Shown here piece by piece: positions 912 through 12,244 of a stretch of DNA of 12,244 bases (positions within the stretch are counted from its first letter, which is position 1; each line of letters starts with the position of its first letter). This DNA is from a virus (taxonomy: Duplodnaviria; Heunggongvirae; Uroviricota; Caudoviricetes). The position numbers were made by a program, and so were the translations under genes. The DNA is taken from the IMG/VR virus record IMGVR_UViG_2681813321_000010. One strand, given 5' to 3'. The notes below the pieces were generated by a model. The model was not told the DNA's origin and searched no databases. It was given only the letters and a program-made list of their open reading frames with translations.

Positions 912-1067
912 TCACTCACCTGAGTTTCTTTCCAGCCAGCGACGGGCACCATTTTCGGTTTTAAACGTTTTGCTTCTGGTATACGTCATCGCGGTAAACG
1001 TGCCGTCCTGGTTGGGAAACACGCCGTACACCAGAGATTCGTTGTTGCCAAGATCGATAGTATCCAT
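912..1067 (-). CDS. ydfA: YdfA-like small protein (51 aa, MDTIDLGNNESLVYGVFPNQDGTFTAMTYTRSKTFKTENGARRWLERNSGE).
   Basis: An internal ATG preceded by GAGG, giving a 51-aa product that matches K-12 ydfA in length. The ORF-track entry 912..1121 is an N-terminally over-extended version. The gene sits immediately downstream of dicA on the same strand. Confidence 0.65.
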   Translation of the reverse strand: MDTIDLGNNESLVYGVFPNQDGTFTAMTYTRSKTFKTENGARRWLERNSGE

Positions 1068-1147
1068 GCTGACCTCATTTCCCCTTAACGCTGGGGTAGC
1101 GGAACTGTTTGCTGAGAACACCGTGCGGTGTGTTGATGCAAATAAGA

Positions 1148-1199
1148 TTAGCCATGGCTAACATATAGGTCAAGTGATTTTGTATGTTATGGCTAACAT
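1148..1199. promoter_or_regulatory. Operator-like palindromes distal to dicA: TTAGCcatgGCTAA (1148-1161) and ATGTTAtggcTAACAT (1184-1199).
   Basis: Both are exact inverted repeats. The half-site core TTAG(C/T)/(G/A)CTAA recurs in the dicA-dicC intergenic region. Confidence 0.45.
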
Positions 1200-1233
1200 G
1201 ATTGATGTGGTAAAAGATAACTCATTGATGATG

Positions 1234-1641
1234 TTATCTTTTATTTGTCCGCTGACGGGCTTTTAGTAATTCTTCAAAGAGTTTATTGAAGTTTTTTACT
1301 CGAGCTCGCATTTCGGCGAGCTGGGTATCCTGTTCTGATTCTGGCAGTGCATTAAACAGCTCAAGGAGCTCTAGTTCTTTGGGGGATAAGGCAACTGGCT
1401 TCTCAACAGGTGGTGTTGGTTGCTTGTCTTCATCGCCAAATAGAATCCATGTTGGTGAGCATTGCAATACTTTGCTGAGGGCAAAAAGGTTCTTCCCTGT
1501 AGGTTCACTATCATCCCGTTCCCATTGTGATACAGACACATGGGAGATTTTCAGGGCTTTAGCAAGAGACCTTTGGGTGTGTTTGAGGTTTTTCCGACGA
1601 TACCTAATGCGTTCGCCGATAGTTAAATTTTTTGTTTCCAT
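1234..1641 (-). CDS. dicA: DicA repressor. It is an XRE-family HTH protein of 135 aa with no C-terminal S24 autopeptidase domain.
   Basis: The translation METKNLTIGERIRYRRKNLKHTQRSLAKALKISHVSVSQWERDD... is recognised as E. coli DicA. It is transcribed divergently from dicC. Confidence 0.9.
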   Translation of the reverse strand: METKNLTIGERIRYRRKNLKHTQRSLAKALKISHVSVSQWERDDSEPTGKNLFALSKVLQCSPTWILFGDEDKQPTPPVEKPVALSPKELELLELFNALPESEQDTQLAEMRARVKNFNKLFEELLKARQRTNKR

Positions 1642-1643
1642 AG

Positions 1644-1710
1644 TTAGCTAATGCTAAATCGTATTGACTATGTTTTTGTTAACATCTATTTTGTTAGTTA
1701 TGACTAACAA
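1644..1710. promoter_or_regulatory. dicA/dicC divergent control region. Contains palindromes TTAGCtaatGCTAA (1644-1657), TGTTAACA (1674-1681) and the perfect 8+4+8 palindrome TTGTTAGTtatgACTAACAA (1691-1710). Also contains a candidate PdicC: TTGACT (1664-1669), a 17-bp spacer and TATTTT (1687-1692).
   Basis: The inverted repeats and the -35/-10 spacing were read directly from the sequence. The 20-bp palindrome overlaps the -10/+1 of the putative dicC promoter. Confidence 0.5.
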
Positions 1711-1724
1711 TAAAGGTGTTTTAA

Positions 1725-1955
1725 ATGCTTAAAACTGACGCTCTTTTGTATTTCGGTTCAAAAACAAAACTTGCACAAGCAGCAGGTATTCGTTTGGCTT
1801 CGCTTTATAGCTGGAAAGGGGATTTAGTTCCCGAAGGTCGCGCGATGCGTCTACAGGAGGCATCTGGCGGGGAGCTTCAGTATGATCCCAAAGTTTATGA
1901 TGAATATCGTAAGACGAAGCGGGCGGGGCGGTTGAACAATGAAAATCACTCCTGA
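1725..1955 (+). CDS. dicC: DicC, a Cro-like HTH regulator of 76 aa.
   Basis: MLKTDALLYFGSKTKLAQAAGIRLASLYSW... is recognised as DicC. AAAGGTG Shine-Dalgarno upstream. Divergent from dicA. Confidence 0.85.
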   Translation: MLKTDALLYFGSKTKLAQAAGIRLASLYSWKGDLVPEGRAMRLQEASGGELQYDPKVYDEYRKTKRAGRLNNENHS

Positions 1956-2460
1956 ACAGGCTCGTGAGGCTCTGGATGCCTGGATATGTCGACCAGGAAT
2001 GACACAGGAGCAGGCGACGATATTAATCACTGAAGCATTCTGGGCTTTGAAAGAGCGCCCGAACATCGATGTTCAGCGTGTCACAGATGAAGGTGGCGCG
2101 GTTGATCAGCGAGCGCTTGGCGTTAATCGAGTGAAGATATTCGAACGCTGGAAGGCTATCGACACCAGGGATAAGCGTGAAAAGTTCACGGCGCTAGTGC
2201 CTGCGATTATGGAGGCTATCCGGATTAGTGATTTCAGGTTGTATCGTGAGATCAGTGATGGAAAAAGTATTACGTACATGATCGCCGGGTTAAATAAAGA
2301 ATATGGCGATGTGGTGGAATCCGGACTGCTTTTTGCAGATCCTGCCGTTGTAGATCGTGAAACTGACGAACTTATAGAAAAAGCAATTGCTTTCAAGCTT
2401 GCGTATCGACAGCAATACCAACAAAAAGCTGGATGGAATTATGAGTCTTCTTTTTGCTGA
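1939..2460 (+). CDS. ydfX: YdfX-like early-operon protein of 173 aa. It overlaps the dicC stop by 17 nt, which suggests translational coupling. Function unknown; possibly a CII/YdaT-like regulator.
   Basis: Long ORF with a start inside the dicC 3' end, paralogous to 6316..6837. In K-12 a truncated pseudogene, ydfX, directly follows dicC. The symbol rests on that synteny, recalled from memory. Confidence 0.6.
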   Translation: MKITPEQAREALDAWICRPGMTQEQATILITEAFWALKERPNIDVQRVTDEGGAVDQRALGVNRVKIFERWKAIDTRDKREKFTALVPAIMEAIRISDFRLYREISDGKSITYMIAGLNKEYGDVVESGLLFADPAVVDRETDELIEKAIAFKLAYRQQYQQKAGWNYESSFC

Positions 2461-3406
2461 ACGCCCACTGGTTATAAACACGCAGCTGGCAATGAAAATT
2501 GGCTTAAACGAAGCCATTGTTTTGCAACAACTGCACTACTGGTTGAGAGATACCAACTCCGGCATGGAATGTGATGGTGTTCGCTGGATTTATAACACAA
2601 CGGAACAATGGCTGGAACAGTTCCCATTCTGGTCAGAGTCAACGTTAAAGCGCGCGTTTGCAAGTCTGAAAACGCTGGGGCTTTTGCGTTGTGAAAAGCT
2701 CAATAAATCAAAGCGCGATATGACCAATTTCTACACGATCAACTACGGGAGCGAGCTTTTAGATGGTGGCAAATTGAGCGAATCCATCGGTTTAAAATGC
2801 GCCGCTCCATCAGGTCAAAATGACACGATGGAAGAGGTCAAAATGAAACGCTCCATTGGTTCAAAACGACTCAATGTCATCGGGTCAAAATGGCCTGATG
2901 ATCTTACAGAGAATACAACAGAGATTACTACAGAGAATAAAAAGACTTCTCGTCCGGAAGCTTCGCAACCGGACCCGCAGACGGTTGAACAGGATTTTTT
3001 AACCCGACACCCTGACGCGGTTGTGTTCAGTGCGAAAAAACGCCAGTGGGGCAGCCAGGAAGATTTGGCGTGTGCGCAGTGGATCTGGGGGCGAATCGTG
3101 AGTCTTTACGAGCAGGCCGCCAGCGATGATGGCGAGATTTCGCGACCGAAAGAACCCAACTGGACCGCATGGGCCAACGACGTGCGCACAATGCGGATGC
3201 TGGATGGCAGAACTCACAGACAAATTTGTGAAATGTTTGGTCGGGTGCAGCGGGATCCATTCTGGGTAAAAAATATCATGAGTCCGTCAAAGCTTCGCGA
3301 AAAATGGGATGAACTGGTTATCCGCCTGGGGCGTTCGTCTGTACAGCGTTGTGTGAATCATATTTCTGAGCCGGATACCGAAATTCCGCCGGGCTTCAGG
3401 GGGTAA
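2441..3406 (+). CDS. Lambda-O-like replication initiator or replisome organizer (321 aa from ATG 2441). Its N-terminal domain is winged-helix-like, a low-complexity linker is encoded by the iteron array, and a C-terminal domain follows.
   Basis: The ORF track gives a TTG start at 2387, but the ATG at 2441 overlaps the upstream stop by 20 nt and is the likelier start. The N-terminus LVINTQLAMKIGLNEAIVLQQLHYWL is typical of phage replication initiators. The in-gene iterons plus the AT-rich tract mirror the ori inside lambda gene O. Confidence 0.7.
   Translation: MSLLFAERPLVINTQLAMKIGLNEAIVLQQLHYWLRDTNSGMECDGVRWIYNTTEQWLEQFPFWSESTLKRAFASLKTLGLLRCEKLNKSKRDMTNFYTINYGSELLDGGKLSESIGLKCAAPSGQNDTMEEVKMKRSIGSKRLNVIGSKWPDDLTENTTEITTENKKTSRPEASQPDPQTVEQDFLTRHPDAVVFSAKKRQWGSQEDLACAQWIWGRIVSLYEQAASDDGEISRPKEPNWTAWANDVRTMRMLDGRTHRQICEMFGRVQRDPFWVKNIMSPSKLREKWDELVIRLGRSSVQRCVNHISEPDTEIPPGFRG
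2789..2950. repeat. ori-like iteron array inside the O-like gene. Five GGT(C/T)(A/T)AAA(T/C)G repeats with 22-25 bp periodicity (starts 2789, 2813, 2836, 2858, 2883), followed by an AT-rich ACAGAGAATA-repeat tract (2901-2950).
   Basis: Counted directly from the sequence. The encoded protein shows the matching repeats GQN/SIGSKR/VIGSKW. Confidence 0.6.
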
Positions 3407-3446
3407 GTGTTAATTTCTGGTCATGAGGTAATTTTCAGGAGGGCTT

Positions 3447-3869
3447 GTGGCAAAAGTTTTTACACAAGAAGAGCGGGAAAAAATTAAAGGGCAGGTTGTT
3501 GAACTCGTACGCCGGAGTGGGCGTGAGACGTTACGGCAACTGGAAGTCAAGACAGGTGCGACAAGATATCTGATGAGCGTTCTCGCAAGAGAGCTGGTTG
3601 CCAGCGGCGATGTATACAACTCTGGTTACGGGTTATTCCCGTCTGAACAGGCGCGTAAGGACTGGCAAAATGCCCGTAAAAAGCTCTCAAGGGCAAAGCT
3701 GAAGGAACCATCTGCGGTTGATCCGGACCTTATCTGGTCATTACCTGACGGAGAAATACGTCGCTACGACAGGCGTCAGAACATAATCTGTCGCGAGTGC
3801 CGGAAGAGTGAAGTTATGCAGCGCATACTAGCATTCTATCAGGGAAATGCTCGATATTTATTGAAGTGA
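3447..3869 (+). CDS. Conserved 140-aa protein downstream of the O-like gene. GTG start; function unknown. It occupies the position where a helicase loader (P/DnaC-like) would be expected.
   Basis: AGGAGGG Shine-Dalgarno 6 nt upstream of the GTG. Paralogue 7824..8231 is about 90% identical. Basic C-terminus with a single CxxC. Confidence 0.6.
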   Translation: MAKVFTQEEREKIKGQVVELVRRSGRETLRQLEVKTGATRYLMSVLARELVASGDVYNSGYGLFPSEQARKDWQNARKKLSRAKLKEPSAVDPDLIWSLPDGEIRRYDRRQNIICRECRKSEVMQRILAFYQGNARYLLK

Positions 3870-4121
3870 TGAGATTAAAGTTTATTAGTTCAGATATTGA
3901 TTGGCTCTTTTGTGGAGTAGGGTAGAGTTAGTGTGTTTGTCTGCTTGGTGCCAGCAGCGGATATGTTTAACAACAGAAAGCATTCAGCATGGTTAGTGGA
4001 TTTGCAAAGTGGATTAGGATTTGAGAAACTTTGATGAAGTTGTAAAGCTTGTTTCTATAAAAATAGAAATTTAACTAATAGTTAAACACACCTCCAGCTT
4101 CATTGAAAAGGATTATTAGCT

Positions 4122-4547
4122 ATGATTGATCCACTTATTAGAAACTTACAGAGTGATATTGCACTACTCCAGCTTTATATCGCGCAACGCAAACAGGCAG
4201 GCTTTCATGACATGGAAAGAATAATTGAGTCATTGACCATCTTTATGTTTCGCGCGCTGAAAATGGGTGAACTGGTAAACATGAATCAGATTAAAGTTAA
4301 TTTTCCCGCCATTGATTTAGCTGATAATAAAAACATGATAGCAGTTCAAGTTACTACGAATGCAAGTCCAGCAAAAATTAAAAAAACTATCGAATCTTTT
4401 GAGAAAATAAATGAAATAGGAGAGAGTCTGAAAGATAAATACTCTACTTTATATATTTTTGGTTTTAACTGTTCCGCGTGCGCTCAGCCGCATTCACCGC
4501 ATCACAAAATTCACTTTAAAAACGGCGGCAGAGCAGTCACGGAGTAA
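4122..4547 (+). CDS. AT-rich 141-aa ORF, possibly a truncated or chimeric N-terminal domain of an abortive-infection-type protein. It tentatively resembles a SMEK-type N-terminal domain. The last ~30 codons are encoded by the direct repeat.
   Basis: AAGGA Shine-Dalgarno 9 nt upstream. GC content is visibly far below the flanking sequence. The region from 4456 onward is shared with 74-165, where a different upstream reading frame fuses to the same tail FGFNCSACAQPHSPHHKIHFKNGGRAVTE. The stop codon lies inside the DicF copy-2 terminator on the opposite strand. Confidence 0.5.
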   Translation: MIDPLIRNLQSDIALLQLYIAQRKQAGFHDMERIIESLTIFMFRALKMGELVNMNQIKVNFPAIDLADNKNMIAVQVTTNASPAKIKKTIESFEKINEIGESLKDKYSTLYIFGFNCSACAQPHSPHHKIHFKNGGRAVTE

Positions 4548-4575
4548 AACTGATACCGCCAAACGTCACCAGAAA
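4521..4575 (-). ncRNA. dicF: DicF small RNA, copy 2. Identical to copy 1.
   Basis: Same sequence as 139-193, offset 4382. Confidence 0.8.
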
Positions 4576-4915
4576 ATTGATAACAGAGGGCGTTGCAGCG
4601 GGGTTGTCGCTTAAGCGTATGGTCAACCTGACAACCCGGTGTCCTCAACGGGGAAGGAATAACCCCGCCATACTTACCGCCGCGCCATTTCGCGGAGTGC
4701 CACAACCGGAAGCGCACGGTCGACGAAAATTTAACGACAGGCTATCTATGAACCAGCTACCTCGCCGTGCGCTTTCGCGTTATGGTCTGACTTTTCATGG
4801 AAATATCCTTTCAGTAAACTGTCAGTGCCGGATGCTCACCCATGTCCGGCGCACGCACTCCACCTCACCCGTGGAGAACTCCTTAATTACCAACCTTAGC
4901 TTCGTTGGTTAGCTA

Positions 4916-5134
4916 TTAACGCGGGTATGTAATCATTCTGGCAATGCTTAATGCCGCTGCTTTTTCCAGCCTGGTGATATCCTGCTCCAGAGCGGACAGA
5001 TTTTCAGCCTGCTTAGCCCTGGCTTCATTGGCCCATTTCAGATCCTGCGCTGCATTAATTTTCTGGCGCATCCACTCATAAAGTTCATCATCGGTATAGT
5101 CTGGCGAGATGATGACGGGTTCTCGTTTCTGCAT
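4916..5134 (-). CDS. ydfC: YdfC-like protein, copy 2. Identical to copy 1.
   Basis: Identical translation to 534..752. Confidence 0.65.
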   Translation of the reverse strand: MQKREPVIISPDYTDDELYEWMRQKINAAQDLKWANEARAKQAENLSALEQDITRLEKAAALSIARMITYPR

Positions 5135-5163
5135 ACTGATTCCTCGCGGTGCTGCTTCGCTTA

Positions 5164-5292
5164 TCAGCCGTTAGATTTTGCCGAGCTGGAAAGCGCCTGT
5201 TTAAACTCACTGAAGCTGAGAGCTTCTTCGCCTTCGGCAAGGCCTTCGAAGTATTCTTCGTAAGCCTTTTCCATGATTGTGTCGAAATCCAT
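5164..5292 (-). CDS. ydfB: YdfB-like 42-aa protein, copy 2.
   Basis: Offset copy of 782..910. Confidence 0.6.
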   Translation of the reverse strand: MDFDTIMEKAYEEYFEGLAEGEEALSFSEFKQALSSSAKSNG

Positions 5293-5293
5293 A

Positions 5294-5449
5294 TCACTCA
5301 CCTGAGTTTCTTTCCAGCCAGCGACGGGCACCATTTTCGGTTTTAAACGTTTTGCTTCTGGTATACGTCATCGCGGTAAACGTGCCGTCCTGGTTGGGAA
5401 ACACGCCGCATACCAGAGATTCGTTGTTGCCAAGATCGATAGTATTCAT
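5294..5449 (-). CDS. ydfA: YdfA-like 51-aa protein, copy 2 (D2N and Y14C relative to copy 1).
   Basis: Offset copy of 912..1067. The two amino-acid differences fall in the substitution cluster near the repeat boundary. Confidence 0.65.
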   Translation of the reverse strand: MNTIDLGNNESLVCGVFPNQDGTFTAMTYTRSKTFKTENGARRWLERNSGE

Positions 5450-5561
5450 GCTGACCTCATTTCCCCTTAACGCCGGGGTAGCGGAACTGTTTGCTGAGAA
5501 CACCGTGCGGTGTCTTGGTGGAGATTAATTTAGAATAACCTAACAAATGTAGCAAGTATTT

Positions 5562-5581
5562 TTGTTAGATTGGTCTAACAA
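5562..5581. promoter_or_regulatory. Operator-like 8+4+8 palindrome TTGTTAGAttggTCTAACAA distal to dicA'. An additional CCTAACAA half-site lies at 5539-5546.
   Basis: Exact inverted repeat. It has the same architecture as the module-A sites but different specificity positions (GA/TC instead of GT/AC). Confidence 0.45.
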
Positions 5582-5616
5582 AAAGAGTGAGGGAATCTAA
5601 GTATCTGAAAGGAGTG

Positions 5617-6024
5617 TTATTTTATTGATTTGTTTTTACGTGCTTTAAGCATTTCTTCGAAGAGTTTATTGAAATTCTCTACTCTTGCGCGCATTTCAGA
5701 CAGTAAGGCTTCCTGCTCGGAGGAGGGAAGAGCATCGAATAATTCGATCAATTCTTTGTGGCTGGGAGTTAACTCGGTTTCCACATGAAGTTCTTGTGCT
5801 GGCACTGGTGCCTTGTCTTCGTCACCAAACATTAGCCATGTAGGCGAGCACTTCAGCGCATCAGCTAAAGCAAATAACCGCTTCCCGACCGGTTGGGTTT
5901 CGTCTCTTTCCCATTGTGAAATTGTGACGTGAGCTACCCCAGCGAGGCGTGCAGCTTCTCGTTGTGTTAGGCGTAATTCTTTTCGTCGTGCCAGAACTCG
6001 CTGGCCTAGGGTTCTTGTATCCAT
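5617..6024 (-). CDS. Second, hetero-immune DicA-type repressor (135 aa). It has a different HTH recognition region and is about 55% identical to DicA.
   Basis: MDTRTLGQRVLARRKELRLTQREAARLAGVAHVTISQWERDE... shows the same domain layout and C-terminal half as DicA. The N-terminal DNA-binding half is substituted. Confidence 0.85.
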   Translation of the reverse strand: MDTRTLGQRVLARRKELRLTQREAARLAGVAHVTISQWERDETQPVGKRLFALADALKCSPTWLMFGDEDKAPVPAQELHVETELTPSHKELIELFDALPSSEQEALLSEMRARVENFNKLFEEMLKARKNKSIK

Positions 6025-6047
6025 AGTTAGGTAATTCTAATTTTTCT

Positions 6048-6092
6048 TGACTTAGGTATCCCGCGCACATTACTGTTAGGAATATCTAACAA
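6048..6092. promoter_or_regulatory. dicA'/dicC' control region. Contains a candidate -35 TTGACT (6048-6053) and the imperfect 8+4+8 palindrome cTGTTAGGaataTCTAACAa (6073-6092), directly upstream of the dicC' GAGGGGG Shine-Dalgarno.
   Basis: Read from the sequence. 6 of 8 arm positions are complementary. Confidence 0.4.
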
Positions 6093-6104
6093 GAGGGGGC
6101 TTTG

Positions 6105-6332
6105 ATGCTTAAAGTTGACGCAATTACTTTTTTTGGCAGCAAAACAAAACTTGCCAATGCCGCAGGAGTGAAACTGGCAAGTGTTGCTGCATGGGGGGAA
6201 CTGGTTCCTGAAGGTCGCGCGATGCGCCTGCAAGAGGCATCCGGCGGGGAACTTCAGTACGACCCCAAAGTTTATGACGAATATCGTAAGGCAAAGCGGG
6301 CGGGGCGGTTGAACAATGAAAATCACCCCTGA
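6105..6332 (+). CDS. Second DicC/Cro-like regulator (75 aa from the ATG at 6105). Its N-terminal HTH is diverged and its C-terminal half is identical to DicC.
   Basis: GAGGGGG Shine-Dalgarno. The ORF-track start at 6102 is a TTG one codon upstream. Confidence 0.8.
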   Translation: MLKVDAITFFGSKTKLANAAGVKLASVAAWGELVPEGRAMRLQEASGGELQYDPKVYDEYRKAKRAGRLNNENHP

Positions 6333-6837
6333 ACAGGTTTGTGAGGCTCTGGATGCCTGGGTATGCCGACCAGGAATGACACAGGAGCAGGCGACGATAT
6401 TAATCACGGAAGCATTCTGGGCTCTGAAAGAACGCCCGAACATCGATGTTCAACGCGTCACGTTTAATGATGGCGAGGTTGATCAACGGGCGTTGGGCGT
6501 TAACCGGGTGAAGATATTCGAACGCTGGAAAGCTATCGACACCAGGGATAAGCGGGAAAAATTCACGGCGCTGATTCCGGCAATTATGGAGGCTATCCGG
6601 ATCAGCGATTTCAGGTTGTATTGTGAAATTACTGACGGAAAAAGCATTACGTACATGATCGCCGGGTTAAACAAAGAATATGGTGATGTGGTGGAGTCCG
6701 GGCTGCTTTTTGCGGATCCATCTGTTGTGGAACGTGAGACTGACGAGCTTATAGAAAAAGCTATTGCTTTCAAGCATGCGTATCGTCAGCAATACCAACA
6801 AAAAGCTGGATGGAATTATGAGCCTTCTTTTTGCTGA
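6316..6837 (+). CDS. ydfX: YdfX-like 173-aa protein, module B. It overlaps the dicC' stop by 17 nt, as in module A.
   Basis: About 90% identical to 1939..2460. Confidence 0.6.
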   Translation: MKITPEQVCEALDAWVCRPGMTQEQATILITEAFWALKERPNIDVQRVTFNDGEVDQRALGVNRVKIFERWKAIDTRDKREKFTALIPAIMEAIRISDFRLYCEITDGKSITYMIAGLNKEYGDVVESGLLFADPSVVERETDELIEKAIAFKHAYRQQYQQKAGWNYEPSFC

Positions 6838-7783
6838 ACGCCCACTGGTTATAAACACACAGCTTGCGATGAAGATTGGCTTAAATGAAGCCATTGTGTT
6901 GCAGCAGTTGCATTACTGGTTGAGAGATACCAGTTCCGGTATGGAATGTGACGGGGTTCGCTGGATTTATAACACAACAGAACAATGGCTGGAACAGTTC
7001 CCGTTCTGGTCAGAGTCAACGTTAAAACGCGCATTTGCAAGTCTGAAAACGCTGGGGCTTTTGCGTTGCGAAAAGCTCAACAAATCAAAGCGTGATATGA
7101 CTAATTTTTACACGATTAATTACGAGAGTGAGCTTTTAGATGGTGGCAAAGTGAGCGAATCCATCAGGTCAAAATGCGCCGCTCCATCGGGTCAAAATGA
7201 CACGATGGAAGAGGTCAAAATGGCACGCTCCATTGGTTCAAAACGACCCAATGTCATCGGGTCAAAATGGCCTGATGATCTTACAGAGAATACAACAGAG
7301 ATTACTACAGAGAATAAAAACACTTCTCGTCCGGAAGCTTCGCAACCGGACCCGCAGACGGCTGAACAGGATTTTTTAACCCGACACCCTGACGCGGTTG
7401 TGTTCAGTGCGAAAAAACGCCAGTGGGGAAGTCAGGAAGATTTGGCGTGCGCACAGTGGATCTGGGGACGAATCGTGAGTCTTTACGAGCAGGCTGCCAG
7501 CGATGATGGCGAGATCACGCGACCGAAAGAACCAAACTGGACCGCATGGGCCAATGACGTGCGCACAATGCGGATGCTGGATGGCAGAAGCCACAGACAA
7601 ATTTGCGAAATGTTTGGTCGGGTACAGCGAGATCCATTCTGGGTAAAAAACATCATGAGCCCGTCAAAGCTTCGCGAAAAATGGGACGACCTGGTCATCC
7701 GCCTGGGGCGTTCACCTGTACAGTGTTGTGTGAATCATATTTCTGAACCGGATACCGAAATTCCGCCTGGTTTCAGGGGATAA
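6818..7783 (+). CDS. O-like replication initiator, module B (321 aa from ATG 6818).
   Basis: Paralogue of 2441..3406 with the same overlapping start context. Confidence 0.7.
   Translation: MSLLFAERPLVINTQLAMKIGLNEAIVLQQLHYWLRDTSSGMECDGVRWIYNTTEQWLEQFPFWSESTLKRAFASLKTLGLLRCEKLNKSKRDMTNFYTINYESELLDGGKVSESIRSKCAAPSGQNDTMEEVKMARSIGSKRPNVIGSKWPDDLTENTTEITTENKNTSRPEASQPDPQTAEQDFLTRHPDAVVFSAKKRQWGSQEDLACAQWIWGRIVSLYEQAASDDGEITRPKEPNWTAWANDVRTMRMLDGRSHRQICEMFGRVQRDPFWVKNIMSPSKLREKWDDLVIRLGRSPVQCCVNHISEPDTEIPPGFRG
7167..7327. repeat. ori-like iteron array, module B. Five GGT(C/T)CAAAA(T/C)G repeats (starts 7167, 7190, 7213, 7235, 7260) followed by an AT-rich ACAGAGAATA tract.
   Basis: Counted directly. 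Same periodicity as module A. Confidence 0.6.
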
Positions 7784-7823
7784 GTGGTGATTTTAGGGCA
7801 TAAAGTAATGTTCAGGAGGACTT

Positions 7824-8231
7824 ATGGCAAAAGTATTTACACAGGAAGAGCGGGAAAAAATTAAAGGACAGGTGGTGGAACTCGTGCGCCAGAGCGGTCG
7901 TGAGACGTTACGGCAACTGGAAGCTAAAACAGGTGCGACAAGATATCTGATGAGCGTTCTTGCCAGAGAGCTGGTTGCCAGTGGTGATGTATATCACTCT
8001 GGCTATGGGGTGTTCCCGTCAGAACGGGCTCGTAAGGACTGGCAAAACGCCCGCAAAAAACTCTCGAGGGCAAAGGTGAAGAAACCTGTTGTGGTTGATC
8101 CGGGCCTTATCTGGACATTACCCGACGGAGAAATACGCCGCTACGACAGGCGTATGAACATAATCTGTCGCGAGTGCCGGAAGAGCGAAGTTATGCAGCG
8201 TGTATTGGCGTTCTATCAGGGATATGCCTAG
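7824..8231 (+). CDS. Conserved 135-aa protein downstream of the O-like gene, module B.
   Basis: AGGAGGA Shine-Dalgarno. Paralogue of 3447..3869 with a shorter C-terminus. Confidence 0.6.
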   Translation: MAKVFTQEEREKIKGQVVELVRQSGRETLRQLEAKTGATRYLMSVLARELVASGDVYHSGYGVFPSERARKDWQNARKKLSRAKVKKPVVVDPGLIWTLPDGEIRRYDRRMNIICRECRKSEVMQRVLAFYQGYA

Positions 8232-8277
8232 AATTGTCACAGGTAATGAAATTAAAGAGTATTGGTTCGGATATGAA

Positions 8278-8307
8278 TTGACATTTTCGCGGCACAGAGC
8301 TAAAAAT
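8278..8307 (+). promoter_or_regulatory. Candidate sigma70 promoter at the start of the AT-rich island: TTGACA (8278-8283), a 17-bp spacer and TAAAAAT.
   Basis: Consensus -35 with canonical spacing, read from the sequence. It would give a ~300-nt leader before the SIR2-family ORF. Confidence 0.3.
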
Positions 8308-8599
8308 AGCCTACTTGTTGGTTTTGTGTGAAAAGCAGACATTTTGAGGCTCAGGATTTGTTATCAAATAAGACCAATACTTATCTATATTAATACACAT
8401 TAAATACTGTGCAATACATTATTGCATTTTATTAGATAAGCGATATTTAGGGAAAAGAAAAGTCATAGAAAACAGGCCGCTATTTGTTGTTGGATTTTAT
8501 AGGCTATATCTAGATTATCTTGCCACTGCGGTCTCTGTTTACCTAACAGCTTGGGCTTCTTTGCATGCAAGTTTGTAATAACAAGAGTAATCAAACGGA

Positions 8600-9631
8600 A
8601 TGTCTATTAATCCTAAACTTAAGCGTATCGCGCGACGCTATCCAGCGTTATTCCAATATGAGTCCCCCTATATGGCAAGAAAATTAATAATATTCGGCAA
8701 CGGTCTCGGTATGGCTTTAGATCCTGCTCACTTCTCCTTAGACAGAGCGTTGGAAGAAATTTGGCATCGCCCCAATTTTTTAAAAGATATCCACAAGCAA
8801 CTTATCGAGCGTTGTCTTCAGCGGCAAGGTCCACCAGAAGGAGAACATGAGTTGGATACCCTTCACCAGGCTGTCACATATTGTAAAGCTCTTGCTCAAA
8901 TTGGAGAGGGGAACGTGCATTGGCTTACTGAAGATGGACTAAACTTCCCCAAAATTACCGCCACTTATATTCACAAAGTTGCAACCAGGTTGCATAATTA
9001 CGATAAAGGTTTGCCACAAAGATTCGAAAATGCGCTTGTGGAGTTTGTAAAGAACACACACTCACATATCGCGACATTAAACTATGACAAATTATTATAC
9101 AATTCATTCATAGATAATGATATATTCAACGGGTATGATGGGGTTTTAGTTGATGGGATGCTAAGCCACGGATTTTCCTCTGCAGCGCTCGAACGGAAAT
9201 ACAATCGTAGGTTTGGTTATTATTTGCACTTGCATGGTTCACCACTATTTATTAATCAGCATGAAAATGTTTTAAAACTTTCACGCTCACAACTTACTCT
9301 TGACATAGATGAACCTAGTGAGCATATAGTGTTAACTCATATAAAAAGAAAACCGTCAGTTATAGCAGCATCTAATGTTCTTTCTACGTACTGGGATTAT
9401 TTGCAGTTTGCATTATTTGAATCAGAAGAAATAATATTGTTTGGTTACTCTGGTCTCGATATTCACCTTAACCTGCTTATTCGACCTTACCTAACCTCTA
9501 AGCCTTTAAGAGTAATTGAGTGGAGCGGTGCTGGTGAACAAAACGCTCGTGAGATATATTGGAAAAACCAGTTGAGACGGGAAGTTACTGTAATTAGGTT
9601 GGATAACATCACTGATTTTATTGATTGGTAG
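8600..9631 (+). CDS. Stand-alone SIR2-family (SIR2_2/ThsA-like NAD+-hydrolase fold) protein of 343 aa in an AT-rich island. Candidate anti-phage defence effector.
   Basis: Motifs seen in the translation: LIIFGNGLGMAL (Rossmann-like N-terminal loop), IATLNYD (the TTNYD-type catalytic Asn motif), YLHLHGS (catalytic His motif) and ILFGYSGLD (the FxGYSxxD motif). GC content is clearly lower than in the flanking phage genes. No SLOG, TIR, STAND or HerA partner is encoded nearby. Confidence 0.75.
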   Translation: MSINPKLKRIARRYPALFQYESPYMARKLIIFGNGLGMALDPAHFSLDRALEEIWHRPNFLKDIHKQLIERCLQRQGPPEGEHELDTLHQAVTYCKALAQIGEGNVHWLTEDGLNFPKITATYIHKVATRLHNYDKGLPQRFENALVEFVKNTHSHIATLNYDKLLYNSFIDNDIFNGYDGVLVDGMLSHGFSSAALERKYNRRFGYYLHLHGSPLFINQHENVLKLSRSQLTLDIDEPSEHIVLTHIKRKPSVIAASNVLSTYWDYLQFALFESEEIILFGYSGLDIHLNLLIRPYLTSKPLRVIEWSGAGEQNAREIYWKNQLRREVTVIRLDNITDFIDW

Positions 9632-9701
9632 CGCAATGCGAAGTTAAAGAGGCAGCCTCATATTTATCAGAGCTGGTGTACGTCCAATACAGGAGGTTAT
9701 C

Positions 9702-9791
9702 GTGCTGGTTCTCAAATGCGCGCTGGCTATTGCGGCTGTAGTGGCAATTTATTGTCTTGCTATTGTTCTTATGGATCGCCTTTCTGATTGA
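9702..9791 (+). CDS. Putative 29-aa hydrophobic single-TM peptide (MLVLKCALAIAAVVAIYCLAIVLMDRLSD). GTG start.
   Basis: Consensus AGGAGG 7 nt upstream of the GTG. The product has uniform hydrophobic composition and charged ends. It was not in the ORF track because it is below the size cut-off. Confidence 0.35.
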   Translation: MLVLKCALAIAAVVAIYCLAIVLMDRLSD

Positions 9792-10002
9792 TTTTATATT
9801 GGCGAGGTGACGGGAGTTAAGTAGAATTGCTGCGGGTGCTTGAGGCTGTCTGCCTCGGGCATGCCACCGTAAGGCAGACAGAGAAAAGCCCCAGTTAACA
9901 TTACGCGTCCTGCAAGACGCTTAACATTAATCTGAGGCCCAATCTATGCTTCACAAACGTAGGTTAGCCTCTTACGCGCCGAAAGGCAAGGAGAAGCAGG
10001 CT

Positions 10003-10158
10003 ATGAAGCAGCAAAAGGCGATGTTAATCGCCCTGATCGTCATCTGTTTAACCGTCATAGTGACGGCACTGGTAACGAGGAAAGACCTCTGCGAGGTACG
10101 AATCCGAACCGGCCAGACGGAGGTCGCTGTCTTCACAGCTTACGAACCTGAGGAGTAA
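10003..10158 (+). CDS. hokD: HokD (RelF), a Hok/Gef-family type I toxin of 51 aa. An in-frame upstream start at 9946 gives a 70-codon mok-like reading frame.
   Basis: MKQQKAMLIALIVICLTVIVTALVTRKDLCEVRIRTGQTEVAVFTAYEPEE is recognised as the Hok family and specifically HokD. AAGGAG Shine-Dalgarno. The leader contains a 10-bp-stem hairpin (9846-9881) typical of hok mRNAs. Confidence 0.85.
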   Translation: MKQQKAMLIALIVICLTVIVTALVTRKDLCEVRIRTGQTEVAVFTAYEPEE

Positions 10159-10226
10159 GAGACCAGGCGGGGGAGAAATCCCTCGCCACCGCTGATGTGT
10201 CAGGCATCCTCAACGCACCCGCACTT

Positions 10227-10258
10227 AACCCGCTTCGGCGGGTTTTTGTTTTTATTTT
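10227..10258 (+). terminator. Rho-independent terminator of the hokD transcript.
   Basis: CCCGC-TTCG-GCGGG stem-loop followed by TTTTTGTTTTTATTTT. Confidence 0.8.
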
Positions 10259-10374
10259 CAACGCATTTGAAGTTCTGGACGGTGTCGGAATAGAATCAAA
10301 AATACTTAAGTAGCGCGCAGGGATAAGAGGGATGGTCCCTTAAAGGGGAGAGCTAATTATCCGGAAGGATTCTG

Positions 10375-10626
10375 ATGATGAACATCGAAGAACTGCGTAA
10401 AATTTTTTGTGAAGATGGCCTCTATGCTGTGTGCGTTGAAAATGGAAATATTGTTAGTCATTACCGCATTGTGTGTTTGCGAAAGAATGGGGCTGCGTTA
10501 ATTAATTTTGTGGATGGTCGAGTGACAGACGGATTTATCTTGCGCGAAGGTGAGTTTGTCACTTCATTACAGGCACTGAAAGAGATCGGAATAAAAGCTG
10601 GCTTTTCTGCTTTTTCAGAAGAATAA
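10375..10626 (+). CDS. rem: Rem-like 83-aa protein.
   Basis: Size and position (between hokD and ydfU) match K-12 Qin rem. GGAAGG Shine-Dalgarno. The symbol rests on synteny and length, recalled from memory. Confidence 0.6.
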   Translation: MMNIEELRKIFCEDGLYAVCVENGNIVSHYRIVCLRKNGAALINFVDGRVTDGFILREGEFVTSLQALKEIGIKAGFSAFSEE

Positions 10627-10692
10627 ACTCATCTACAATCTTGCGCGGGGCTGAACTCCCGCTGAGTAACACCGTGCCGCCGGAGGAAACCG

Positions 10693-10971
10693 ATGGCACG
10701 CAACGCAAAATATTACAATCATGATAATTCGACCGTTCTTGCCCACACGCACGAGCGGTATTCTCACGCATTTAAGTCAGACTGGTACCAGCATCCCCCA
10801 TGCACTGAAGAACAGGCCGAATGGCTCATTCAGTGTTACCGCAGGCGCGGATGCGAGGTTAAAAAAGCCCTTAGCCTCGACTACCGTCACTGGATAATCT
10901 CCGTCGGGCTTCCTTACTCCGAACGCCCACCGCGTCTGTCCCGCACATTCCAGCAACGCATCTGGAGGTAA
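10693..10971 (+). CDS. Hypothetical 92-aa protein, translationally coupled to the downstream DUF968 gene.
   Basis: GGAGGA Shine-Dalgarno 5 nt upstream. The stop lies 1 nt before the next gene's start. Confidence 0.55.
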   Translation: MARNAKYYNHDNSTVLAHTHERYSHAFKSDWYQHPPCTEEQAEWLIQCYRRRGCEVKKALSLDYRHWIISVGLPYSERPPRLSRTFQQRIWR

Positions 10972-10972
10972 C

Positions 10973-12022
10973 GTGCGGGTATTACTTCGACCTGTTCTGG
11001 TACCGGAACTCGGGCTGGTGGTCCTTAAGCCCGGTCGCGAATCACTGCCGGTTTTTCATTGCGGCAGGGTGCTGGTGGAGCCGGAACCGAAAAGCATGCG
11101 CGGTCTGCCGTCCGGAGTCGTCCCTGCCGTTCGCCAGCCGCTGGCGGAGGATAAATCATTACTGCCATTTTTCAGCGATGAGCGTGTGATTCGTGCTGCT
11201 GGCGGCGCTGGCGCACTGTCTGACTGGCTCCTGCGTCATGTCAAATCCTGCCAGTGGCCTCATGGTGACTACCATCACAGTGAAACCGTCATACATCGTT
11301 ATGGTACCGGCGCAATGGTGTTGTGCTGGCACTGCGACAACCAGCTGCGCGACCAGACCTCCGAATCACTCGGGCAACTTGCTCACCAAAACCTGTCTGC
11401 ATGGATGATTGACGTCATACGCCATGCAATGAATGGCTCGCAGGAACGGGAATTATCGCTGGCTGAATTATCCTGGTGGGCGATCCGCAATCAGGTGGCG
11501 GACGCGCTACCGGAAGCGGTATTACGTCGTTCGCTGGGGTTGCGTGCGGAAAAAATCCGCTCAATGTACCGTGAAAGCGACATCGTACCGGGAGAGCAGA
11601 CCGCCACCAGCATACTGAAACAGCGCACAAAAAATCTTGCGCCGCTGCCTCACGCCCACCAGCAACAGAACCCGCCACAGGAAAAGACGGTGGTCAGCAT
11701 TGCTGTTGATCCGGAGTCTCCGGAATCTTTAATGAAGCGACCTAAACGTCGCCGTTGGGTAAATGAGAAATATACGCGCTGGGTAAAGACACAGCCGTGT
11801 GCGTGTTGTGGTAAGCCAGCCGACGATCCCCATCACCTGATTGGTCATGGTCAGGGCGGAATAGGGACAAAAGCCCACGATATTTTCACGCTACCGTTGT
11901 GCCGGGAGCATCACAACGAACTTCATGCTGATCCGCTGGCATTTGAAGAAAAGCATGGTTCCCAGATTGATTTAATTTTTCGTTTTCTTGATCGCGCCTT
12001 TGCAACCGGCGTGCTCGGGTAA
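10973..12022 (+). CDS. ydfU: DUF968-family lambdoid protein (YdfU/YdaW-like, 349 aa) with a C-terminal Cys/His-rich HNH-like motif.
   Basis: C-terminus CACCGKPADDPHHLIGHGQGG...LCREHHNELH. GGAGG Shine-Dalgarno before the GTG. Length and synteny with rem and hokD match Qin ydfU. Confidence 0.75.
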   Translation: MRVLLRPVLVPELGLVVLKPGRESLPVFHCGRVLVEPEPKSMRGLPSGVVPAVRQPLAEDKSLLPFFSDERVIRAAGGAGALSDWLLRHVKSCQWPHGDYHHSETVIHRYGTGAMVLCWHCDNQLRDQTSESLGQLAHQNLSAWMIDVIRHAMNGSQERELSLAELSWWAIRNQVADALPEAVLRRSLGLRAEKIRSMYRESDIVPGEQTATSILKQRTKNLAPLPHAHQQQNPPQEKTVVSIAVDPESPESLMKRPKRRRWVNEKYTRWVKTQPCACCGKPADDPHHLIGHGQGGIGTKAHDIFTLPLCREHHNELHADPLAFEEKHGSQIDLIFRFLDRAFATGVLG

Positions 12023-12034
12023 AAGAGGTTACTG

Positions 12035-12244
12035 ATGCGTATAGAGTTTGTTTTGCCTTACCCGCCGACGGTGAACACCTACTGGCGACGTCGTGGCAGC
12101 ACATATTTTGTGTCAAAAGCCGGTGAGCGTTATCGCCGGGATGTGGCACTTATTGTTCGCCAGCAGCGGCTGAAATTAAACCTGTCCGGAAGGCTGGCGA
12201 TAAAGATTATTGCAGAGCCACCGGATAAGCGCCGCCGCGACCTG
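12035..12244 (+). CDS. rusA: RusA-family Holliday-junction resolvase, 5' partial. It runs off the window end.
   Basis: LPYPPTVNTYW...YRRDVALIV...IKIIAEPPDKRRRDL matches the RusA pattern, including the PDxRRRDLDN motif. AAGAGG Shine-Dalgarno. Confidence 0.8.
   Translation, partial: MRIEFVLPYPPTVNTYWRRRGSTYFVSKAGERYRRDVALIVRQQRLKLNLSGRLAIKIIAEPPDKRRRDL

Follow-up and report, generated by a model that had tools for sequence, protein, structure and literature searches.

The window analyzed here, a stretch of 12,244 nucleotides (nt) from the Caudoviricetes record IMGVR_UViG_2681813321_000010 of IMG/VR, carries inverted repeats with a TTAG-N6-CTAA core next to the genes of two DicA-type repressors. 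Most probably, these dyads are the operators of two immunity cassettes of the P22-like (lambdoid) kind that belong to Qin-type defective prophages; the cassettes are arranged head to tail and are called A and B below. Cassette A is the Qin locus of Escherichia coli K-12. Its Oc operator has been published, descriptions of operators at dicA-dicC and at dicBp go back to Bejar 1988 (cited in PMC10448788), and the literature shows that DicA acts at Oc and represses dicBp and dicC. Cassette B is a common sister immunity type, the operators of which appear to follow the expected logic of lambdoid cassettes and are predicted targets of its own repressor, DicA'. A purine/pyrimidine difference beside the conserved core may make the two repressors discriminate each other's sites. 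What is new here is a corrected site map for both cassettes, the placement of the operators at dicBp, and a correlation between repressor residues and operator bases.

Operator-like dyads are confined to four regulatory spacers

Seven exact TTAG-N6-CTAA dyads were found in the window against 0.14 expected, a count reached by none of the shuffled sequences (0/200). All seven lie within four spacers, namely those of dicBp and dicA-dicC in cassette A and those of dicBp' and dicA'-dicC' in cassette B. When the base beside TTAG is taken into account, TTAGY-N4-RCTAA (Y, pyrimidine; R, purine) occurs three times (0.03 expected), in cassette A only, and TTAGR-N4-YCTAA four times (0.04 expected), in cassette B only. 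The initial annotation had assigned the core TTAG(C/T)-N4-(G/A)CTAA to both cassettes, which holds for cassette A; that of cassette B is TTAG(A/G)-N4-(T/C)CTAA. The strings that it quoted at 1644-1657, 1148-1161, 1184-1199 (ATGTTATGGCTAACAT) and 1691-1710 and, in cassette B, at 5562-5581 and 6073-6092 are exact (Table 1). Its list for cassette B was right as far as it went and missed two sites, at 6027-6040 and 5530-5543. One string was misplaced, as TGTTAACA lies at 1677-1684 and not at 1674-1681, where the window reads TTTTGTTA. The proposal that the dyads are operator-type sites of two DicA-type repressors is borne out by their placement, by the statistics and by the match to the published Oc.

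The dicA-dicC spacer of cassette A

dicA and dicC are divergently transcribed. The dicA product matches Pfam HTH_3 and Phage_CI_repr, and RefSeq annotates dicA in a genome with a 100%-identical cassette. The principal operator, Oc, agrees letter for letter with the published one, which was given as the opposite strand, 5'-TTGTTAGTCATAACTAACAA. When placed before a reporter gene, Oc conferred DicA-dependent repression in vivo, which was abolished by one A-to-C change (PMC3441716), equivalent to T1695G in the window. DicA bound at Oc represses dicC and activates dicA (PMC3441716). The promoter that we predict for dicC agrees with that drawn in PMC3441716, and its -10 element, TATTTT at 1687-1692, is overlapped by Oc, as had been noted from the sequence.

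Two further elements, Oa and a putative Om, were assigned in this spacer with coordinates inferred from papers later than Bejar 1986/1988. The centers of Oa, Om and Oc, at 1650.5, 1675.5 and 1700.5, are spaced by exactly 25 base pairs (bp). Oa is nearly invariant among the class A loci defined below; its center (CTAATG) differs from that of the other sites, and it lacks the outer TG/CA. TGTTAACA forms the right part of the weak Om. As a separate site it was rejected, its palindrome not being conserved in Klebsiella or Serratia. At the positions homologous to Om, class A loci of Cronobacter and Serratia have TTAGT, and class B loci have TTAGG or TTAGA.

Oa and its cassette B homologue Oa' both begin 2 nt from the start codon of the repressor gene (CAT-AG-TTAG; 1641-1646 and 6024-6029), and no Shine-Dalgarno sequence is evident. 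The dicA mRNA may be leaderless or nearly so, like those of lambda cI and paaR2.

The center of Oc (YYATRR) and the adjacent 5' untranslated region of dicC (1698-1715) are the most polymorphic intergenic positions of type A prophages (L002-L081), with many combinations of transitions only, and the remaining spacer is nearly invariant. Diversifying selection on the Oc center was considered and rejected, because these positions are roughly as diverse as the synonymous sites of dicA and vary by transitions only; a relaxed but class-limited constraint fits better.

Two predicted operators at each dicBp promoter

Sites also lie beyond dicA, in the dicBp spacer. As read from the sequence, dicBp on the minus strand has a -35 element TTGACC (reverse complement of 1168-1173), a 17-nt spacer and a -10 element TAATCT (reverse complement of 1145-1150). 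The distal operator keeps its center YYATRR in 49 unique class A loci. The proximal operator has a good right half and a degenerate left half. It matches the perfect cassette B site at 5562-5581 column for column, its natural variants retain T(A/T)TG-YYATRR-CTAACA, and its Cronobacter homologue has the full TTAG. A 6+4+6 dyad had been described at 1184-1199; this register is 2 bp off, since the homologues in cassette B and at other loci place the operator at 1180-1199. As a functional register, the 6+4+6 palindrome was also discarded because it is disrupted in TGTATGCTATAGCTAACA, the most frequent natural variant, in which the 8+4+8 arrangement retains YYATRR.

Two dicBp operators could thus be placed in each cassette (1145-1164 and 1180-1199; 5527-5546 and 5562-5581). 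According to PMC10448788, which cites Bejar 1988, the dicA-dicC and dicA-dicBp spacers each have three lambda-like operators; for the third dicBp operator mentioned in the literature, we found no convincing conserved dyad downstream of 1199 or 5581. The sites beyond dicA had been interpreted as autoregulatory or looping elements. Because they overlap or flank dicBp, where DicA represses 22-fold (PMC10448788), they are better seen as targets for repression of ydfABC-dicF-dicB, similar to the lambda leftward promoter and operator (PL/OL), and not as primarily autoregulatory. The two operator sets are separated by about 546 bp and might interact by looping, by analogy with OL and the rightward operator OR.

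Cassette B is a sister operator class

DicA' is 58% identical to DicA and matches the same families (Pfam HTH_3/Phage_CI_repr). DicC' is 83% identical to DicC, with the differences concentrated in the helix-turn-helix, and dicA' and dicC' are divergently transcribed. The minus-strand promoter dicBp' is made up of a -35 element TTGCTA (reverse complement of 5550-5555), a 17-nt spacer and a -10 element TAAATT (reverse complement of 5527-5532). The centers of Oa', Om' and Oc', at 6033.5, 6058.5 and 6082.5, are 25 and 24 bp apart, and alignment of the two cassettes puts the four strong sites of each in homologous columns. Among class B loci, Oa' is invariant in E. coli, a G/A polymorphism in Om' remains a purine, and the site at 5562-5581 is conserved in 58 unique loci with variation in the center only. 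Unlike the K-12 Oc type, all eight half-sites of cassette B carry a purine beside TTAG, which argues that this cassette represents a sister operator class and not the K-12 class.

Table 1. Known and predicted operators, promoters and associated genes of the two cassettes (positions in the 12,244-nt window)
Feature	Position	Strand	Sequence or product	Location and basis
DicF, copy A	141-192	minus		Rfam, 72.5 bits
dicBp promoter spacer, copy A	1122-1233
dicBp distal operator, cassette A	1145-1164		core TTAGCCATGGCTAA (1148-1161)	fills promoter spacer, overlaps -10; exact dyad
dicBp proximal operator, cassette A	1180-1199		TTGTATGT-TATG-GCTAACAT	6 bp upstream of -35; A/B alignment
dicA	1234-1641	minus	class A repressor, 135 amino acids (aa), helix ISHVSVSQWER	open reading frame (ORF)
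Oa	1641-1660		core TTAGCTAATGCTAA (1644-1657)	adjoins dicA start codon; exact dyad
PdicC	1664-1692	plus	TTGACT, 17-nt spacer, TATTTT	consensus scan
Putative Om	1666-1685		GAC-TATG-TTTTTG-TTAA-CAT	weak, over PdicC -35; inferred from spacing and homology
Oc	1691-1710		TTGTTAGTTATGACTAACAA	principal DicA operator, over PdicC -10 and +1; exact dyad
dicC	1725-1955	plus	Cro-like partner	ORF; Pfam P22_Cro
DicF, copy B	4523-4574	minus		Rfam, 72.5 bits
dicBp' distal operator	5527-5546		AATTTAGAATAACCTAACAA, core TTAGAATAACCTAA (5530-5543)	over dicBp' -10; exact TTAG-N6-CTAA
dicBp' proximal operator	5562-5581		TTGTTAGATTGGTCTAACAA	perfect 8+4+8 dyad
dicA'	5617-6024	minus	class B repressor, 135 aa, helix VAHVTISQWER
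Oa'	6024-6043		core TTAGGTAATTCTAA (6027-6040)	adjoins dicA' start codon; exact dyad
Putative Om'	6049-6068		left half-site only, TTAGG (6052-6056)	over -35 TTGACT (6047-6052); inferred
Oc'	6073-6092		CTGTTAGGAATATCTAACAA	over predicted PdicC' -10 and +1; exact dyad; positional homologue of Oc
dicC'	6105-6332	plus	Cro-like partner	Pfam P22_Cro
rem	10375-10626	plus	antirepressor	cassette B prophage arm; annotated rem in a 100%-identical genome

The inner operator base follows the repressor class

We compared loci from three sources: IMG/VR gave 160 of the two E. coli types, species-representative genomes gave 29 (none of them of class C), and 13 were from more distant homologues (L191-L198, L200-L204), class C having been recovered by a separate homologue search. 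The base next to TTAG, called the inner base, was counted in unique loci. In class A, defined by the helix ISHVSVSQWER, operators have the form TGTTAG-YYATRR-CTAACA and the inner base is a pyrimidine in all half-sites (326/326); besides E. coli, this class was found in Citrobacter, Serratia, Klebsiella and Cronobacter. Class B repressors (VAHVTISQWER) go with TTAG-R...Y-CTAA and a purine in 438/456 half-sites, also in Buttiauxella, Citrobacter, Enterobacter, Pantoea, Erwinia and Rahnella, and a Rosenbergiella protein with VSHVTISQWE follows the same pattern. Class C (LSDVS(I/V)SQWER), from Citrobacter, Salmonella, Serratia and E. albertii, has TATTAG-YYATRR-CTAAT with an inner pyrimidine in 34 of 36 half-sites. 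Within class A, the four Y/R positions of the center vary in many combinations, by transitions only.

The partner protein could be separated from the repressor in this comparison. A locus with a class A DicA (L164) and two with a class B DicA (L170/L203) share the same Cro-like helix-turn-helix, VELQSLYKW, and their operators are TTGTTAGTCATGACTAACAA and TTGTTAGACATACCTAACAA, respectively. The occurrence of Y and R operators with one Cro helix-turn-helix indicates that the inner base follows DicA and not DicC. The suggestion that each repressor had co-evolved with its sites is therefore supported inasmuch as the inner base (Y versus R) tracks the DicA helix-turn-helix class in E. coli prophages and across more than 12 other enterobacterial genera, in counts that are phylogenetically nonindependent.

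The outer bases vary as well. In class C (L191-L198) the inner Y is retained and the outer G is replaced by A where D replaces H in the helix, which suggests a residue-to-base code of N/T (P22), H/G and D/A. L166, L168, L169, L202 and L179 have the class B recognition helix with a different helix 2 (SQAALGK...), and outer bases CTTAGG or TTTAGG instead of TGTTAGG. In L202 the outer bases are changed though its Cro-like helix, VRLASVAAW, is one residue away from VKLASVAAW of the dicC' product in the window.

An apparent outlier, L162 (JAIIUG010000151.1), is a 2.5-kb contig of a Collinsella sp. metagenome-assembled genome with a 100%-identical E. coli DicA and type A operators; it is almost certainly E. 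coli contamination of the Collinsella bin.

Comparison with the P22 c2 repressor

DicA and P22 c2 can be aligned over their N-terminal domains without a gap (E value, 8e-20), and these DNA-binding domains are homologous. For c2, PDB entries (2R1J, 3JXB-D) and an OR/OL consensus, ATTTAAGATATCTTAAAT, are available. In the P22 operator positions 2 to 7 are contacted and positions 8 to 11 are not, Val33 of c2 sits on the TpA step of TTAA, and E44 and N46 tune recognition of the center (PMC4267663, PMC5175364). With distance from the dyad as the reference, P22 ATTTAAGAT and DicA TTGTTAGYY line up at a common TTA step, and the published mutation that abolishes Oc falls in this step. Position 7 of the P22 operator, which is the contacted base nearest the dyad, is the equivalent of the Y/R base, located at a distance of 3 bp from the dyad. 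The DicA systems thus resemble P22 in their dyad sites, with the TTA step equally far from the dyad, contacted arms and an uncontacted 4-bp center, and also in having three OR-like sites, additional OL-like ones and a Cro partner that falls in the P22_Cro family.

They differ from P22 in the half-site, TGTTAG(Y/R) here and ATTTAAG there; among the compared loci, P22-type TTAAG sites were present only in Edwardsiella, beside c2-like repressors of 216 aa. The residue equivalent to N32 of c2 is H in DicA of class A or B but D in that of class C, and the center-tuning E44 and N46 correspond to E/T in DicA and Q/V in DicA'. DicA, with 135 aa, also lacks the RecA-cleavable C-terminal domain and is induced via the antirepressor Rem.

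The recognition helices of the two repressors had been said to differ. They do so at three positions (S33A, S36T and V37I), by changes that are conservative; V35, S38, Q39, W40, E41 and R42 are invariant. Outside this helix, the two proteins also differ in helix 2 and in the loop that follows helix 3. The DicA/DicA' substitutions singled out are S33/A31, S36/T34, V37/I35, E46/Q44, T48/V46 and N51/R49. One or more of the listed residues may set the preference for the inner base.

Model of regulation and alternative explanations

In the model that we favor, a DicA dimer would bind TGTTAG-N6-CTAACA through its c2-like N-terminal domain, shutting off dicC and the toxic dicBF operon, and at Oc it would also activate dicA. 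Each cassette would have three sites about 25 bp apart: Oa would lie where dicA starts, and PdicC would carry a weak Om on its -35 element and a strong Oc on its -10 element and +1. Two more sites would lie at dicBp, one over the -10 element and one just upstream of the -35 element of the promoter that drives ydfABC-dicF-dicB. With the outer TGTTAG common to both cassettes, specificity would depend on the center together with the inner base (3 bp from the dyad), which read TTAG-YYATRR-CTAA in class A and TTAG-R(W-rich)Y-CTAA (W, A or T) in class B; the inner base co-varies with the DicA class. A bolder version, in which this base and the center form a near-binary specificity switch set by a few DicA residues and the two cassettes are orthogonal bistable switches, is put forward only tentatively.

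Several observations weigh against this model. The sequence-predicted Om and Oa were not bound by DicA in an in vivo reporter assay (data not shown in PMC3441716), so that the elements at 1644-1657 and 1677-1684 are not established DicA sites. Text derived from Reg-Seq/RegulonDB gives a DicA site at dicB as "location unknown." Exceptions occur in class B, with T or C at the inner base in 18/456 half-sites and some right halves reading ACTAA or GCTAA. The split between classes A and B represents essentially one ancient event, so that the counts reflect conservation within clades and not independent switches. Finally, the identical outer TGTTAG and the conservative helix changes (S to T, V to I) make cross-binding plausible.

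The lack of DicA binding at Oa and Om would be explained if Oa/Oa' and the weak Om were mainly targets of DicC/DicC' for shutting off dicA, much as OR3 of lambda is for Cro. In O157:H7, dicA is repressed when DicC is overexpressed, and spontaneous switching requires DicC (PMC10448788); the divergent center of Oa, its missing outer TG/CA and its standing as the most invariant site point the same way. Oa nevertheless conforms to the DicA class, with TTAGC in A and C and TTAGG/TTAGA in B, including at loci with one Cro type, and lambdoid CI and Cro normally share sites, so that a role of DicC would refine our model and not replace it. We consider such a division of labor a real possibility, at somewhat less than even chances.

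Cross-binding would be the rule if both repressors read the common TGTTAG...CTAACA arms and the Y/R base and center reflected drift or affinity tuning; the cassettes would then be homoimmune and cross-repressing. The identical outer hexamers and the six invariant recognition-helix residues are in line with such a shared specificity. So is the behavior of P22 c2, whose main specific contact is that of Val33 with the thymine methyls of TTAA and which, in a molecular dynamics simulation, showed no preference at the base beside the center (PMC5175364), and so is the free variation of center positions within a class. It is harder to reconcile with the absence of any transversion at the inner base in 326 class A half-sites (0 in 326) despite abundant transitions there, or with a class rule that holds down to about 45 to 65% protein identity in other genera. 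Moreover, the inner base switches with the DicA class at a constant Cro helix-turn-helix, and the divergent block described below is sharply bounded like a classical immunity cassette. A single shared specificity is a plausible but less likely alternative.

That the palindromes are chance or structural features (hairpins) devoid of regulatory role, as the weak Om and the equally weak left half-site at 1180-1199 might suggest, is excluded for practical purposes by the shuffles (0/200), the in vivo data at Oc and the conservation of position across genera.

Organization and mosaic origin of the window

ORF, Pfam, Rfam and BLAST analyses identified the window as two head-to-tail early regions of Qin-type prophages. 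In copy A, DicF is followed by ydfC/B/A, the dicBp spacer, dicA, dicC, a ydaT-like gene, a DUF977 gene and a truncated SMEK gene. Copy B has the same gene order and continues into SIR2, hok/sok and rem. The two DicF small RNA genes, one per cassette, are identical, each with a separate dicBp-type promoter upstream. Transcripts initiated at dicBp' would continue antisense into the replication and SMEK genes of cassette A.

The copies are 100% identical from 74 to about 1000, about 50 to 65% identical over approximately 1135-1830 and 85 to 100% identical beyond 1830. The divergent block spans exactly the dicBp operators, dicA and the region up to the DicC helix-turn-helix, and its sharp bounding by near-identical flanks gives it the shape of a classical immunity cassette.

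Positions 1-1026 are identical to a type B prophage of the O111:H2 strain 12A, positions 1003-4466 to a type A prophage of strain FDAARGOS_1059, and positions 4456-12244 are again 100% identical to strain 12A. The order is thus that of a mosaic, with a type B left arm, a type A prophage up to the truncated SMEK gene and a type B prophage again. FDAARGOS_1059 has both cassettes at 100% identity, in separate prophages. The second junction (4446-4466) is inside the SMEK gene at an 11-nt microhomology, TTTTTGGTTTT; it was found in 0/5,426 complete E. coli genomes and was also absent from IMG/VR. The tandem arrangement may be a real recombinant or an assembly chimera, and the operator analysis is independent of which of these applies. 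The cassettes themselves are common, type A being present in 851 and type B in 566 of the 5,426 genomes.

Two adjoining perfect palindromes, TTTCTATAAAAATAGAAA (4052-4069) and TTTAACTAATAGTTAAA (4070-4086), lie just upstream of the SMEK-domain ORF (4122-) and show no relation to the DicA motif. In the type B prophage, the moron region (8600-9631 and 9834-10158) carries a gene of the SIR2 family, a candidate for antiphage defense, and a hokD/sok type I toxin-antitoxin system (sok, Rfam 116 bits); at this position the type A prophage has SMEK and methyltransferase genes instead.

Discussion

Both cassettes show the features of lambdoid or P22-type switches, with divergent repressor and Cro genes, dyads over a PR-like (rightward) promoter and a second set at a PL-like promoter. 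Neither 135-aa repressor has a Pfam match to the Peptidase_S24 domain, which places the cassettes, lambdoid-like in their working, in an antirepressor-controlled subgroup with short repressors. DicA has no site for Ala-Gly cleavage, and its repression is lifted in K-12 by the antirepressor Rem (PMC10448788). Cassette A is the dicA-dicC-dicBp locus of the K-12 Qin prophage (Yun et al. 2012, PMC3441716; Ragunathan et al. 2023, PMC10448788), with the same dicBp, ydfABC, DicF and rem components and without any difference. Cassette B differs from the K-12 locus in its repressor, to the extent given above, and in its TTAG-R...Y-CTAA operators, and we found no explicit description of this immunity type in the literature searched.

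A related arrangement is found in the PaaR2/YdaS switch of the cryptic prophage CP-933P (PMC8630535), to which RacR/YdaS of Rac is comparable. It too is a bistable switch of CI- and Cro-like proteins in a cryptic prophage, with palindromic operators at PR and the promoter of the repressor gene (PRM), another set at a PL-like promoter that precedes kil/dicB-type genes, and a ydaT-family gene following. It differs in a repressor family with low similarity to DicA, in the half-site GTTTAGTAA and in having four equally spaced 18-bp repeats. As in imm-lambda, imm434 and imm21, divergence is confined to a sharply bounded block comprising OL, repressor, OR and the N-terminal part of cro, and repressor and operators change together. 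Unlike in those phages, the two specificities are much closer, with six outer bases in common, and heteroimmunity is a hypothesis.

Our findings leave the current understanding of lambdoid switches unchanged. The comparative map pins the DicA sites at dicBp to two predicted sites, where database-derived text lists the location as unknown. If the inner base and center do act as a specificity switch and the tandem is real, one prophage would possess two independent immunity switches, each gating its own copy of the operon for DicF, an inhibitor of cell division. The correspondence would also supply a compact code for re-engineering specificity, in which H goes with an outer G, D with an outer A, the S-V class with Y and the T-I class with R. 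For the family of P22 c2-like repressors, such a residue-to-base correspondence could help to predict cross-immunity among Qin-like prophages of pathogenic E. coli.

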